Shown here: in pieces, positions 11,781-15,148 of the stretch | Position numbering within the stretch: position 1 is the first letter of the stretch | Layout: each line of letters opens with the position of its first letter | Source: Candidatus Pacearchaeota archaeon | GTDB taxonomy: Archaea > Nanobdellota > Nanobdellia > Pacearchaeales > GW2011-AR1 | Direction of reading: 5' to 3' | DNA: 22,999 nt | NCBI GenBank assembly: GCA_018304175.1 | Contig: JAGVWT010000007.1 | Coordinates: forward strand, 1-22,999 | The notes under the pieces: model-generated | What the model was told of the DNA's origin: nothing | The model's database searches: none | What the model saw: the letters and a program-made list of their open reading frames with translations, nothing else | Position numbers and translations under genes: made by a program

Positions 11781-12161
11781 TTATTTATCCTTCCCGAAAC
11801 TAAAGTTAAAATTATATCCTTCTCTCGGGACGTTTTTTCCTTTATCAATAAGTTCAATTCCTCTTCTTACTACTTCTGATGGTGTGTTATATACCTCTCC
11901 TAAAATATCTGAAGCAGCACTCTTTGCAGCTTCATTGTTGTCGTAGCCGTAGCGGTTTCTGAATCTTTGATTGATTATGTCGCCGAGTTGTCTAAATGAT
12001 TCTTGTGTTTTTATAACACCTGAATCGTTTCTAATGGCTTGCCCAATTCTGTTCTCCAAACGCGTTACGTTGTTATTTTGATTATTCTGCGCGTGAACAC
12101 TTGTTGTTAAAACCAACGACGTTCCAATAACTCCTAAAAAATAATTCAAACCTCTTTTCAT
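11781..12161 (-). CDS. Small secreted hypothetical protein (126 aa)
   Basis: Strong RBS gaggtga 3 nt before the ATG; signal peptide MKRGLNYFLGVIGTSLVLTTSVHA-Q; its stop abuts the tyrS stop with no gap. Confidence 0.75.
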   Translation of the reverse strand: MKRGLNYFLGVIGTSLVLTTSVHAQNNQNNNVTRLENRIGQAIRNDSGVIKTQESFRQLGDIINQRFRNRYGYDNNEAAKSAASDILGEVYNTPSEVVRRGIELIDKGKNVPREGYNFNFSFGKDK

Positions 12162-12206: not shown

Positions 12207-13139
12207 TTATAAATTTAACTTTAATTTGAATTCTATAATATCCATATCCTTCAGAACATGTGTTAAACTCACAATTTGATTTGAAAATTTACTGCTAGGT
12301 CCTGTGATTCGCGACTCTTTAATTTTTTCAATGTTTTTAAAAACTTTTTTTGCTATGTCTTTTACAGTACTATTTTCATCTAAAATGATTGGATTTTCTG
12401 ATTTATTTTTTCCGGGCTCTTTTGTATAAACCCTTATTTTATCAAAACTCTGGAAGATCTTATTTTTCAATTCTTCTAATCCCCCATAATTTTTATTGGA
12501 AATTATTGTGAAGTTGTATTTTTTACTTTGAAGATTTGCAGTGATTTTTCTTTTCTCATCGTTACTTAATAAATCTGTTTTATTGAAGACGATTAGCTGC
12601 TTTCCTTTTACCTTTTCCAAATGTTTTCTTATTTCTTCAATTTGTGCTAATTTTGTTACTAAAATTAAAATAACATCTGCACTATTTGTTAAACCTTTGT
12701 CGTAATATTCTGATTCAATAGCAGGAATTTCTATTAACTGTATTTTTATTCCTTGTCCATAATTTATCATCCCTATTTCCGGAGTTTTTGTTGTAAACGA
12801 AACATTTTCTCCTGAAGAAATTTTTGGCTTCGCGTTTGTTAATGAAGAAATTAGTGAAGATTTGCCTGAATTTGTAAAACCGATTATTGCTGCCTGCATA
12901 TCTTCTTTTTTAATTCCTTTTTTGCCTGATGTTTTTGAAACCTTTTTATATCTCTCAATTTTTTCTTTGAGCTTTTTAAATCGAGTTTTTAGCTGTGCAA
13001 GCATTTTTTCTGCCGATTTGTGTTTCGGACATTCCTTTATCATTTCTTCTAATGCCTCTAGTCTCTGCCCGTCGTTTTGTGCACTCAGAAATTTTGATTC
13101 TGCTTTTTGATATTGCGGTGATTGATTTGTTGAAGCCAT
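12207..13139 (-). CDS. DRG/OBG-superfamily GTPase with C-terminal TGS domain
   Basis: N-terminal helical ECPKHKSAEKMLAQLK; G1 GFTNSGKS; G2 FTT; G4 NKTD; TGS-like RVYTKEPGK...STVKDIAKKV...HVLKDMDIIEF. G3 is atypical (EIPA). Confidence 0.85.
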   Translation of the reverse strand: MASTNQSPQYQKAESKFLSAQNDGQRLEALEEMIKECPKHKSAEKMLAQLKTRFKKLKEKIERYKKVSKTSGKKGIKKEDMQAAIIGFTNSGKSSLISSLTNAKPKISSGENVSFTTKTPEIGMINYGQGIKIQLIEIPAIESEYYDKGLTNSADVILILVTKLAQIEEIRKHLEKVKGKQLIVFNKTDLLSNDEKRKITANLQSKKYNFTIISNKNYGGLEELKNKIFQSFDKIRVYTKEPGKNKSENPIILDENSTVKDIAKKVFKNIEKIKESRITGPSSKFSNQIVSLTHVLKDMDIIEFKLKLNL

Positions 13140-13172
13140 ATAGCTTTTAAACCAACATGGCTTAAAAAATTT
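13140..13172. promoter_or_regulatory. 33-bp bidirectional promoter region for two likely leaderless transcripts
   Basis: atagcttttaaaccaacatggcttaaaaaattt: ttttaaa about 25 nt before ATG 13173 (+) and tttttaag on the minus strand about 25 nt before ATG 13139 (-). There is no room for an RBS. Confidence 0.6.
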
Positions 13173-13928
13173 ATGAATAAAAAGGAAGTTCTTAAAAAAA
13201 TAATGGAAAAGAAAGAATTTTCAGAGCTTCCTATTGAAGATGTTGAAATGGCCCTTTTTTTGTGTTTTAACAAGGATTTATCTGAGAAAGGGCAAATCAA
13301 ATACACGCGAGAAGTGCTTCATAGGGTTTATGGGGCTTTTGGAAGCAGGAAGTTACTTGTTTCTAAAGAGAGAAATCCGGAGTGGATTTTGAAAAAACAT
13401 CTTTCAACTAGAGAAAGATTGCCTTACTACAAAGAAATTTATAGCAGGCTTCTGAAAAATCAAAAACAGGTTACAATAATAGATTTGGGTGCAGGCGTCA
13501 ATGGGTTTTCTTTGGGATTTATTTCCGGAATAAGATATGTTGGGATTGAAGGAATTGGGCAACTTGTTAACTTAATGAATGATTATTTTAAAAAACAAAA
13601 ACTTAATGCAAAAGCGATTCATTTGAGTTTGTTTCAGTTTGAGAAAATAAAAAATTTGATAAAAAAAGAAAAAGGAAAAAAAATTGTGTTTTTGTTTAAA
13701 GTTTTGGATTCCTTGGAAATTTTGGATAGAAATTATTCAAAAAAGCTGATTATTGAAATATCTAGTTTAGTAGATGAAATAGTTGTGAGTTTTGCTACAA
13801 GAAGTATGGTAAAAAGGAAAAAATTCTTTGCAAATAGGAAGTGGATTATTGATTTTATAAAGGAAAACTTTAAAATTATTGATGATTTTGAGCTTGGGGG
13901 AGAGAGATATACAGTCTTTGAAAAATGA
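13173..13928 (+). CDS. ArmA/Rmt/Sgm (FmrO)-family 16S rRNA m7G1405 methyltransferase homologue
   Basis: Family motifs in the correct order across the full length: KKEFSEL, LHRVYGAF, HLSTRERL (HxSTxER), IDLGAGVNG (SAM motif I), FLFKVLDSLE, VVSFATRSM, ELGGERYTVF. Confidence 0.8.
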   Translation: MNKKEVLKKIMEKKEFSELPIEDVEMALFLCFNKDLSEKGQIKYTREVLHRVYGAFGSRKLLVSKERNPEWILKKHLSTRERLPYYKEIYSRLLKNQKQVTIIDLGAGVNGFSLGFISGIRYVGIEGIGQLVNLMNDYFKKQKLNAKAIHLSLFQFEKIKNLIKKEKGKKIVFLFKVLDSLEILDRNYSKKLIIEISSLVDEIVVSFATRSMVKRKKFFANRKWIIDFIKENFKIIDDFELGGERYTVFEK

Positions 13929-13942
13929 ATTTATAAGTCAAA

Positions 13943-15148
13943 ATGAAAGAAAACTTTAGAAAAAAAGTCCTGAAAAATGGCTTGACAATACTATTTGAAA
14001 AGAGAGAACTGCCTGTTGTTAGTATTGCAATCGCTGTTAAATGCGGCGGAATGTATGAATCGGAAAATGAAAAAGGAATTTCCCATTTTATAGAACATAT
14101 GCTTTACAAAGGCACTTCAAAAAGAACCCCAAAACAAATTTCTGAGGAAATAGAGAAAAATGGAGGAGTCATGAATGGTTTTACCGACGAGAATGTTACA
14201 GCTTTTTGGTGTAAGATGCCGAGTGTTCATTTAGACATTGGGCTGGACGTTCTTATAGATATGATGAGCAATTCCTTATTCGATGAAAAAGAGATGGAAA
14301 AAGAGAGAAAAGTTATTTTTGAGGAATTAAAAATGAGGAAAGATAACCCCCAGATTTATTCAATTGATCAAAATATGGGTCTAATATATGAAAAACCTTT
14401 CGGAATTCCTTTGATAGGTAATGAGAAGAGCATGAATTCTATAAACAGAAAAAAAATTATTCAAAGATTCAAAGAATTTTATCATCCAAAAAACATGATC
14501 CTGTGTGTTGTTGGAAATGCTGATTTTGAAAGAGTTGTGAGATTCGCTGAAAAAAGTTTTGGAAGAACAGATGGAAAACCAAAAAAATTCAAAATAAAAC
14601 AAAAACAGAGTTCTAAGACAGAAAAAAGAAAAGGAATTTCTCAGACAAATATTATTTTTTCTTATCATACTCCTTTGTACTCTGATAAAAAAAGTTTTGC
14701 TGCTGAGGTGTTAAATACACTGATGGCCCAAGGGATGTCGTCGAGACTTTTTATGGAAATAAGGGAGAAGAGAAATCTTGCTTATGCAATTCAAGGATAT
14801 TCCCAAATAAACAAAGATTTTTCATATAGTATGATTTATGTTGGGACTACAAAAGAAAATGTTGGAAAGGTTAAGAAGCTTGTACTGGAAGAGTTTGAAA
14901 AAGTTGCAAAAAATTTTACGGAAAGAGGATTGAATCAAATCAAGGAGCAATTGAAAGGAACTCACAAAATTTCTATGGAAGATTCAACAAATCAGATGGT
15001 TGGCCTTATTGCTAGTGAAGTAAATGGTAAAGCAGAGGATTATTATGATTTTGGCAAAAATGTAGATGGCGTCAAATTAAAAGATGTTATAGAGTTGTCA
15101 AAAAAAGCGGCAAAAAAACACAGTTTTTTTGTCCTAATTCCTGGTTGA
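13943..15148 (+). CDS. M16 (insulinase/pitrilysin) family zinc peptidase
   Basis: GISHFIEHMLYKGT (HxxEH), NGFT, downstream Glu in VIFEEL, GMSSRLFMEIREKRNLAY in the C-domain. Confidence 0.95.
   Translation: MKENFRKKVLKNGLTILFEKRELPVVSIAIAVKCGGMYESENEKGISHFIEHMLYKGTSKRTPKQISEEIEKNGGVMNGFTDENVTAFWCKMPSVHLDIGLDVLIDMMSNSLFDEKEMEKERKVIFEELKMRKDNPQIYSIDQNMGLIYEKPFGIPLIGNEKSMNSINRKKIIQRFKEFYHPKNMILCVVGNADFERVVRFAEKSFGRTDGKPKKFKIKQKQSSKTEKRKGISQTNIIFSYHTPLYSDKKSFAAEVLNTLMAQGMSSRLFMEIREKRNLAYAIQGYSQINKDFSYSMIYVGTTKENVGKVKKLVLEEFEKVAKNFTERGLNQIKEQLKGTHKISMEDSTNQMVGLIASEVNGKAEDYYDFGKNVDGVKLKDVIELSKKAAKKHSFFVLIPG

Follow-up and report, generated by a model that had tools for sequence, protein, structure and literature searches.

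The window analyzed here, namely a stretch of 22,999 nucleotides of contig JAGVWT010000007.1 (assembly GCA_018304175.1, Candidatus Pacearchaeota archaeon), carries at positions 13173–13928 of its forward strand a gene of the FmrO/Arm methyltransferase family, the product of which is truly, though distantly, related to the bacterial aminoglycoside-resistance rRNA methyltransferases. The window is located on contig 10 of a 544-kb metagenome-assembled genome (MAG) belonging to the Nanoarchaeota (17 contigs, 87.7% complete), in which a PolD DP2 fragment and an archaeal small-subunit rRNA are the archaeal markers. The gene starts with ATG and encodes 251 residues plus a stop codon, as indicated by the open reading frame (ORF), Pfam, the NF000466 model and an AlphaFold2 model. 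An earlier interpretation made from the nucleotides alone (the sequence-only reading) had described a full-length homolog of the ArmA/RmtB type showing a series of hallmark motif blocks, and this description was confirmed: each block lies at the position given for it on the + strand, NF000466 matches residues 5–246 and the structure matches over residues 1–251. The public gene call P0001 (204 residues, i.e., 81% of the 251-residue query) is too short for this ORF, since the homologs conserve residues 1–47, where P20, D23, A27, and R46 are invariant, and the model folds this segment into the expected helices. The orthologs are all labeled "hypothetical protein" by the NCBI, and those bearing an organism name come from Nanoarchaeota or Nanoarchaeia MAGs.

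The match to the ArmA/Rmt/Sgm (FmrO) family is far beyond chance. The profile search advocated in the sequence-only reading supported the family it had named: PF07091 (FmrO), the sole Pfam family found on the protein, scored 32.9 bits (E 5.8e-08) as against a gathering cut-off of 27, and 29.4 bits, likewise above the cut-off, in a six-frame search of the genome. The NCBIfam model NF000466 (generic Rmt) gave 93.3 bits (E 1.4e-26), with residues 5–246 aligned to positions 2–250 of 254. In the PDB sequence search, the best single sequence was Sgm (E 3e-6) and RmtB matched over its full length (E 2e-4); the eight best matches were all to Sgm, RmtB, ArmA, RmtF, and RmtC, and unrelated proteins appeared only from E 0.047 upward. 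The AlphaFold2 model, built with 36 orthologs as input, reached a predicted local distance difference test score (pLDDT) of 88.8 and a predicted template modeling score of 0.88, and the top 16 Foldseek matches to it were all methyltransferases forming 7-methylguanosine at position 1405 of 16S rRNA (m7G1405). VIA-align gave Z 26.0 with RmtF (242 residues, root-mean-square deviation 2.5 Å), 25.0 with Sgm over 236 residues and 25.0 with RmtB over 233 residues, all three alignments spanning residues 1–251. The ten best structural matches are m7G1405 methyltransferases (Z 17.9–26.0), nine of which extend from residue 1 or 2 to residue 250 or 251, the other being ArmA 3fzg, which covers residues 57–251; the best unrelated methyltransferases, at Z 16.1 or less, align over about residues 48–251, that is, over the Rossmann domain only. 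As modeled, the protein thus consists of a class I Rossmann catalytic domain and the helical N1/N2 domain specific to the family.

The functional residues of Sgm (PMC2896518) and RmtC (PMC10054953) were mapped onto the protein by means of hidden Markov model (HMM) alignments and an alignment called A2, and conservation was assessed in the 36 orthologs, which show 56–74% identity (alignment A1). The N-terminal domain N1/N2 (13173–13457, + strand, like all the motifs below) is predicted to form helices at residues 3–10, 21–29, 38–57, 69–80, and 83–94. In RmtC, this domain docks on the 30S subunit, with roles for K20, Y21, R50, H54, and Y60 (PMC10054953); R46, H50, and F56, which correspond to the last three, are invariant or nearly so, and the invariant F56 occupies the site of the aromatic residue Y60 that stacks between S-adenosylmethionine (SAM) and G1405. 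Motif X, HLSTRERL (13398–13421, residues 76–83), the H76, S78, T79, E81, and R82 residues of which belong to the contacts with the carboxyl/aminopropyl end of SAM, is invariant in the 36 orthologs; S78 is equivalent to RmtC S107, and T79 and R82 to Sgm T105 and R108. In motif I, DLGAGVN (13482–13502, residues 104–110), which forms the SAM glycine loop, D104, G106, G108, and N110 are kept, being invariant or nearly so, and the loop is intact, although in comparison with the pattern D-[LI]-[AG]-C-G-L-N-P, the sequence DLGAGVNG has Ala for Cys, Val for Leu and Gly for Pro. The acidic residue of motif II, E126 (13548–13550), which corresponds to Sgm D156 and RmtC D160, the residues contacting the SAM ribose, is at least 90% conserved, Asp taking its place in a few orthologs. 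The S152-L153-F154 residues following strand beta-3 (13626–13634) are invariant, as are F175 and K176 in the FKVLDSLE block (13695–13718, residues 175–182, placed by HMM alignment to 8ghu); K176 is the counterpart of RmtC K204, which is essential and contacts N7 of G1405 (PMC10054953). The last block, SFATRS (residues 206–211, 13788–13805), where R210, the equivalent of RmtC K236, is mostly kept among the orthologs, is followed by the basic loop SMVKRKKFFANR, the two together extending over 13788–13838. This loop matches Loop237-246 of RmtC, and pLDDT decreases there to 63 at residues 211–220; K216 aligns with RmtC R241 and A220 with M245, the alignment of the loop being uncertain. The RmtC loop passes from disorder to order upon binding to 30S, and its R241 and M245 residues, together with R211, distort helix 44 (h44) (PMC10054953).

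The gene has all the appearances of a native one. Its GC content (0.298) resembles that of its neighbors (0.293 and 0.323), as does its GC content at third codon positions, and no transposase or integrase was found among the neighboring ORFs by Pfam annotation, so that the native composition and the lack of a mobile element mentioned in the sequence-only reading were both borne out. The neighbors are housekeeping genes encoding a tyrosyl-tRNA synthetase (TyrRS), a DRG/Rbg GTPase, an M16 peptidase, an arginase-fold protein, LigT, an ERCC4 nuclease, and a helicase. The gene on the opposite strand (12207–13139) encodes a DRG/Rbg-family ribosome-interacting GTPase with MMR_HSR1 and TGS domains according to Pfam (Rbg2 7nrc, 1.9e-17; Rbg1 4a9a, 5.4e-17). 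The 33-nucleotide spacer between the two divergent genes (13140–13172) contains two A/T-rich TATA-like stretches and probably holds the promoters of both, for what would be leaderless transcripts; a scan of the spacer for bacterial promoters and terminators yielded no signal above that of shuffled sequences, as expected for an archaeon. On the other side, the M16 peptidase gene (13943–15148, + strand) begins 14 nucleotides past the methyltransferase stop codon in the same direction, and is probably co-transcribed with the methyltransferase gene, followed by the arginase-fold and LigT genes. Between the TyrRS and GTPase genes, an ORF of 126 residues on the – strand (11781–12161) shows a hydrophobic signal-like N-terminus; it has no Pfam match, and tblastn detected a homolog in 0/20 related loci.

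The organization of this region was compared at 20 loci using genome regions and tblastn, and two types of sequence were distinguished. Twelve of the loci carry a protein 37–59% identical to that of the window (the window type), and in 11 of these (45–59% identity) the order TyrRS, divergent GTPase, methyltransferase, M16 is maintained; the twelfth, G085 (37%), has kept only the M16 gene nearby, and its sequence is also intermediate in A2. The other eight loci, which show either 26–31% identity or no tblastn match, have other contexts and higher Pfam scores: this classical type scores 60–120 bits, versus 29–33 in the case of the window type. In A2, it resembles the bacterial enzymes in having both ACGLNP and the Asp of motif III, neither of which is present in the window type. 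In four classical-type members of the GTDB family, only 64–90 nucleotides separate the GTPase gene from the divergent M16 gene, with the methyltransferase gene being located elsewhere; the window-type gene was therefore inserted between them. The head-to-head arrangement with a translation GTPase that had drawn attention in the sequence-only reading does exist, with the divergent DRG/Rbg gene 33 nucleotides away, but it is a derived insertion occurring in one sub-lineage and not an ancestral pairing. An ancestral functional link with the GTPase was accordingly rejected, in view of the other location of the methyltransferase gene in the classical-type members. No clear case of the two types coexisting in one genome was observed among the genomes sampled.

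As regards the distribution of the gene in DPANN archaea, which was among the checks proposed along with the sequence-only reading, PF07091 matches were identified in 126 of the 201 genomes of the order and in 229 of the 401 Nanoarchaeota genomes sampled across the phylum (a tally including three unpublished genomes, G436, G507, and G568, on which none of the other conclusions depends), usually as a single copy; none were present in the 14 control genomes, four of which are archaeal. In several families the matches are complete or nearly so (41/42, 13/13, 11/11, and 10/10). Since the Pfam model detects the window type only weakly, the GTDB family was rescanned with a profile made from A1, and the gene was then found in 124 of the 161 genera and in 28 of the 32 genomes which are at least 90% complete: it is native and near-core in this family. 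In several of the family genomes (G630, G602, G637, G594, G661, G148, G106, and G665), the profile match either falls into two pieces next to each other or is interrupted by a single in-frame stop codon (TGA in G106, TAA in G665), which might be due to insertions, to frameshifts or to the decay of the copy. Genome G290 carries two FmrO-family genes (L039 and L040), one of the ordinary archaeal type and the other, very divergent, placed outside the archaeal core on a branch of length 1.8–2.0. A pattern derived from a six-sequence alignment (A5, with a motif I of the CGLNP type), which is blind to the window type and therefore provides no census, occurred at at least 80 loci. Among the matches listed, many are third-party annotation assemblies entitled "uncultured Methanosarcinales archaeon" carrying FmrO genes (L060, L071, L073, L076, L107, and others); L107, the only one of these included in the tree, falls within the Nanoarchaeota clade, and these titles are probably wrong taxonomic labels rather than evidence for the family in Methanosarcinales.

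Unrooted trees of 50–51 sequences were built with IQ-TREE (LG+C20) without a true outgroup. They include five plasmid genes from PLSDB (RmtB1, ArmA, RmtD2, RmtC, and RmtF1) and seven loci found in bacterial genomes of GTDB, of which six are labeled Chloroflexota and one is an unclassified "bacterium" MAG, and leave out the actinomycete producer sequences and NEQ545. The Nanoarchaeota core forms one side of a branch supported at 99/96, and the window-type clade (100/100) is nested in this core at the end of a stem of 1.2–1.3 substitutions per site: the window type is a fast-evolved sub-branch of the archaeal clade. RmtB/D/F, ArmA, RmtC, and the Chloroflexota clade (100/98) are all outside the archaeal core, the placement of the long branches L039, L041, and ArmA being of low certainty. 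The trees support the existence of a large archaeal branch that appears to have been mostly vertically inherited. The phylogenetic comparison with the acquired genes called for by the sequence-only reading was thus carried out for the plasmid genes, which lie outside a single archaeal clade. The suggestion that the locus might be informative about the origin of the family was not borne out as regards these genes: the archaeal clade was rejected as the donor or proximate source of the plasmid genes, since none of them nests inside it, and trees without an outgroup are silent on the direction of any ancient inter-domain transfer. The sister group of RmtC (98/87) is L121 (JACIXS010000100.1, "bacterium isolate MAG-58"), a chromosomal homolog from an unclassified environmental bacterium; this placement is tentative because RmtC is on a long branch.

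These data bear on whether the gene might serve for resistance or self-protection, having been kept because these archaea or their hosts encounter aminoglycosides. All the characterized members of the family confer aminoglycoside resistance, and two elements of the drug site, A1408 and G1405, are conserved in the 16S rRNA of relatives. We nevertheless take this explanation to be distinctly improbable: no aminoglycoside biosynthesis, efflux or mobile-element genes were seen in the context of the gene upon Pfam annotation, and the gene is included in an operon-like row of housekeeping genes, occurs throughout the phylum, mostly in single copy and in MAGs from many sources, was inherited along the archaeal tree rather than being patchily transferred, and has been reported in the hyperthermophiles Nanoarchaeum equitans and Nst1 (PMC2896518, PMC3655853). 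An acquired resistance island was ruled out on the grounds of composition, context and phylogeny. The sequence-only reading had left the choice between a housekeeping modifier and a cryptic resistance gene; since the gene is native and mostly vertically inherited, a housekeeping role fits better than acquired resistance. The formation of m7G1405 is deduced from homology, and three residues of importance in the bacterial enzymes are replaced.

The putative target was looked for in the 16S rRNA of three relatives, of which G009 and G125 have the window-type gene and G427 has the classical type. The two strands at the top of h44 have the sequences GCCCGUCAAACC and AAGUCGUCACAAGG, and G1405, A1408, and C1496 are present in all three genomes. 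Position 1400 (E. coli numbering), in the decoding center, is normally a near-universal C; the 16S rRNAs of G009 (L056) and G125 (L055) have U at this position. Among the 161 genomes of the family, CACACTGCCCGTCA was found in 29, of which 24 have the window-type gene, five have no detected gene and none have the classical type, and CACACCGCCCGTCA was found in 15, which carry the classical type, an intermediate type or no gene. As both traits follow lineage, the co-occurrence of C1400U with the window type may reflect only a few events.

Taken together, these results make it reasonably likely that the gene encodes a native, vertically inherited, constitutive 16S rRNA methyltransferase of the Arm/FmrO family acting at or near G1405, m7G1405 being the most likely product. 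The evidence in favor of this consists of the family and the fold, the conservation of most of the catalytic residues, the native near-core status of the gene, its place in the trees, the gene order kept at the window-type loci and the fact that close relatives have G1405 in their 16S rRNA. Several points weigh against it, however. The score of 93.3 bits obtained with NF000466 is far under the 250-bit equivalog cut-off, and the protein is therefore a family homolog and not an Rmt equivalog that can be named. The assembled 16S rRNA of the window genome itself breaks off at the edge of a contig (model position 828), and its 3' fragment was not found. Several Nanoarchaeota families have no PF07091 match in the genomes sampled (0/10 and 0/8, for example), and the gene is therefore dispensable. 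In none of the papers searched is an activity reported for an archaeal member of the family. In the protein itself, K20 and Y21 of RmtC align with E15 and F16 (K13 and K14 being adjacent), the sequence K-K-E-F (13209–13220) standing where bacteria have K-K-Y, and in RmtC the binding to 30S depends on K20 while the Y21F mutation greatly reduces the resistance conferred (PMC10054953); I183, just past FKVLDSLE, is at the position of RmtC R211; and the invariant Ser152 occupies, in the window type, that of the motif III Asp (Sgm D182).

The last of these replacements raises the question of whether the protein may have lost SAM binding and become a catalytically dead, ribosome-binding factor involved in assembly or quality control. 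In Sgm, D182 contacts the adenine and the D182A mutation abolishes cofactor binding (PMC2896518); the Asp or an equivalent residue is present in the other aligned Nanoarchaeota and in all five Rmt/ArmA sequences (Asp in RmtB, RmtC, RmtD2, and RmtF), the Cys and Pro of motif I are also replaced, and the gene adjoins that of a ribosome-associated GTPase. A dead enzyme seems very improbable to us all the same, because the 36 orthologs share R82, the glycine loop, and the catalytic K176 without exception and E126 with few exceptions, and because some class I m7G methyltransferases, such as RsmG, naturally lack the motif III carboxylate, as noted by Husain et al. (PMC2896518). The fact that the replacement residue Ser152 is itself invariant argues for a SAM pocket remodeled under selection and not for one in decay.

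If the chemistry is retained along with the fold, the specificity may still have changed: after its burst of divergence, the window type may have come to methylate a different position of the small-subunit rRNA, or a different RNA altogether. The long stem of the window-type clade and the alterations in motifs I and III would fit this explanation, and so would the replacement of the residues involved in docking (RmtC K20 and Y21) and h44 distortion (R211). The function of NEQ545, the homolog in N. equitans, was moreover left open by Husain et al. (PMC2896518). On the other hand, the residues dealing with the flipped G1405 and the methyl donor are invariant (RmtC Y60, K204, and S107, here F56, K176, and S78), as are the readers of helix 45 (h45), R50 and H54 (here R46 and H50), the geometry agrees over 233–242 residues at 2.3–2.5 Å with RmtF, Sgm, and RmtB, and the K-Y pair is missing from RmtF as well, where N-L is found instead (A2). 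A change of specificity is therefore an unlikely explanation in our opinion.

The methylation of helix 44 at or near G1405 remains the reading we prefer, and it is from homology that we infer the substrate, the atom that is methylated and the physiological role. The helical N-terminal domain would dock on the assembled small subunit at the surface formed by h24, h27, h44, and h45, the basic C-terminal loop would pry open the top of h44, and F56 and K176 would hold the flipped base while SAM donates the methyl group. The enzyme would be produced constitutively for ribosome maturation and would not be a resistance factor of an inducible or mobile kind; a by-product would be that the ribosomes are insensitive to 4,6-disubstituted deoxystreptamine (4,6-DOS) aminoglycosides. 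Going further, we can only tentatively suggest that m7G1405 or a neighboring methylation of h44 might be constitutive in much of the Nanoarchaeota, which would be the first housekeeping use of a "resistance" family, and that in the sub-lineage of the window the gene moved beside the DRG GTPase gene and the SAM pocket was remodeled (Asp to Ser) alongside C1400U. In a 2026 review, m7G1405 is regarded as an adaptation of recent date, associated with horizontal gene transfer and known from actinomycete producers and plasmid-borne armA (PMC13602947); a near-core, vertically inherited family in a whole archaeal phylum suggests that methylation at the top of h44 may have an older physiological role. 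In that case, an intrinsic insensitivity of these archaea to 4,6-DOS aminoglycosides would be expected. The family also offers structural biologists a range of docking surfaces and SAM pockets that have diverged naturally.

Archaeal members of the family have been in print since 2010, and the statement in the sequence-only reading that it is known from producer actinomycetes and clinical plasmids was therefore out of date: NEQ545 of N. equitans, with its diverged N-terminal domain, was presented as the first ortholog of the Arm family in archaea (Husain et al., 2010; PMC2896518), a homolog was the only functionally assignable one of the 15 Nanoarchaeota-specific genes forming a genomic signature (Podar et al., 2013; PMC3655853), and uncharacterized Chloroflexi homologs are included in the family tree of Nosrati et al. 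(2019). What is mainly new here is the breadth of the distribution (229/401 genomes sampled across the phylum), the existence of two sequence types, the fact that the gene was inserted next to that of the DRG GTPase, and the loss of the Asp of motif III in favor of another residue.

Among the closest known systems, NEQ545 and its Nst1 ortholog likewise belong to the archaeal Arm family, are strongly diverged, possess a helical N-terminal domain and constitute a lineage signature; judging from the published description, the C-terminal motifs of NEQ545 are perfectly conserved, whereas motifs I and III are altered in the sub-branch of the window. The classical FmrO homologs of Nanoarchaeota and Woesearchaeota belong to the same archaeal clade but keep CGLNP and the motif III Asp and occur in other contexts, and the Chloroflexota homologs are members of the same family in which the K-Y pair of the bacterial enzymes is retained and which are placed outside the archaeal clade. 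RmtB, RmtF, RmtC, RmtD2, and ArmA have the same two-domain fold (Z 17.9–26.0) and the same order of motifs, and share with the protein the equivalents of R50, H54, Y60, S107, D160, K204, and K236, the identity with RmtB amounting to 21–22% over the alignment; they differ from it in having Asp instead of Ser in motif III, Lys-Tyr (N-L in RmtF) instead of Glu-Phe, and ACGLNP instead of GAGVNG. These acquired genes are located beside IS91 transposase and beta-lactamase genes, whereas that of the window is chromosomal, native and near-core. On one of the plasmids (L049, NZ_KT935446.1), rmtD2 lies directly downstream of the gene encoding the tRNA-guanine transglycosylase Tgt and adjoins an IS91 transposase gene, and the presence of Tgt looks like a remnant of a chromosomal context that was carried along. 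Lastly, the actinomycete self-resistance enzymes Sgm, KgmB, GrmA, and FmrO share SAM-binding positions with the protein, since T105, R108, and D156 of Sgm are conserved as T79, R82, and E126, but the equivalent of Sgm D182 is Ser here, and the gene, unlike theirs, is not part of a biosynthetic cluster.

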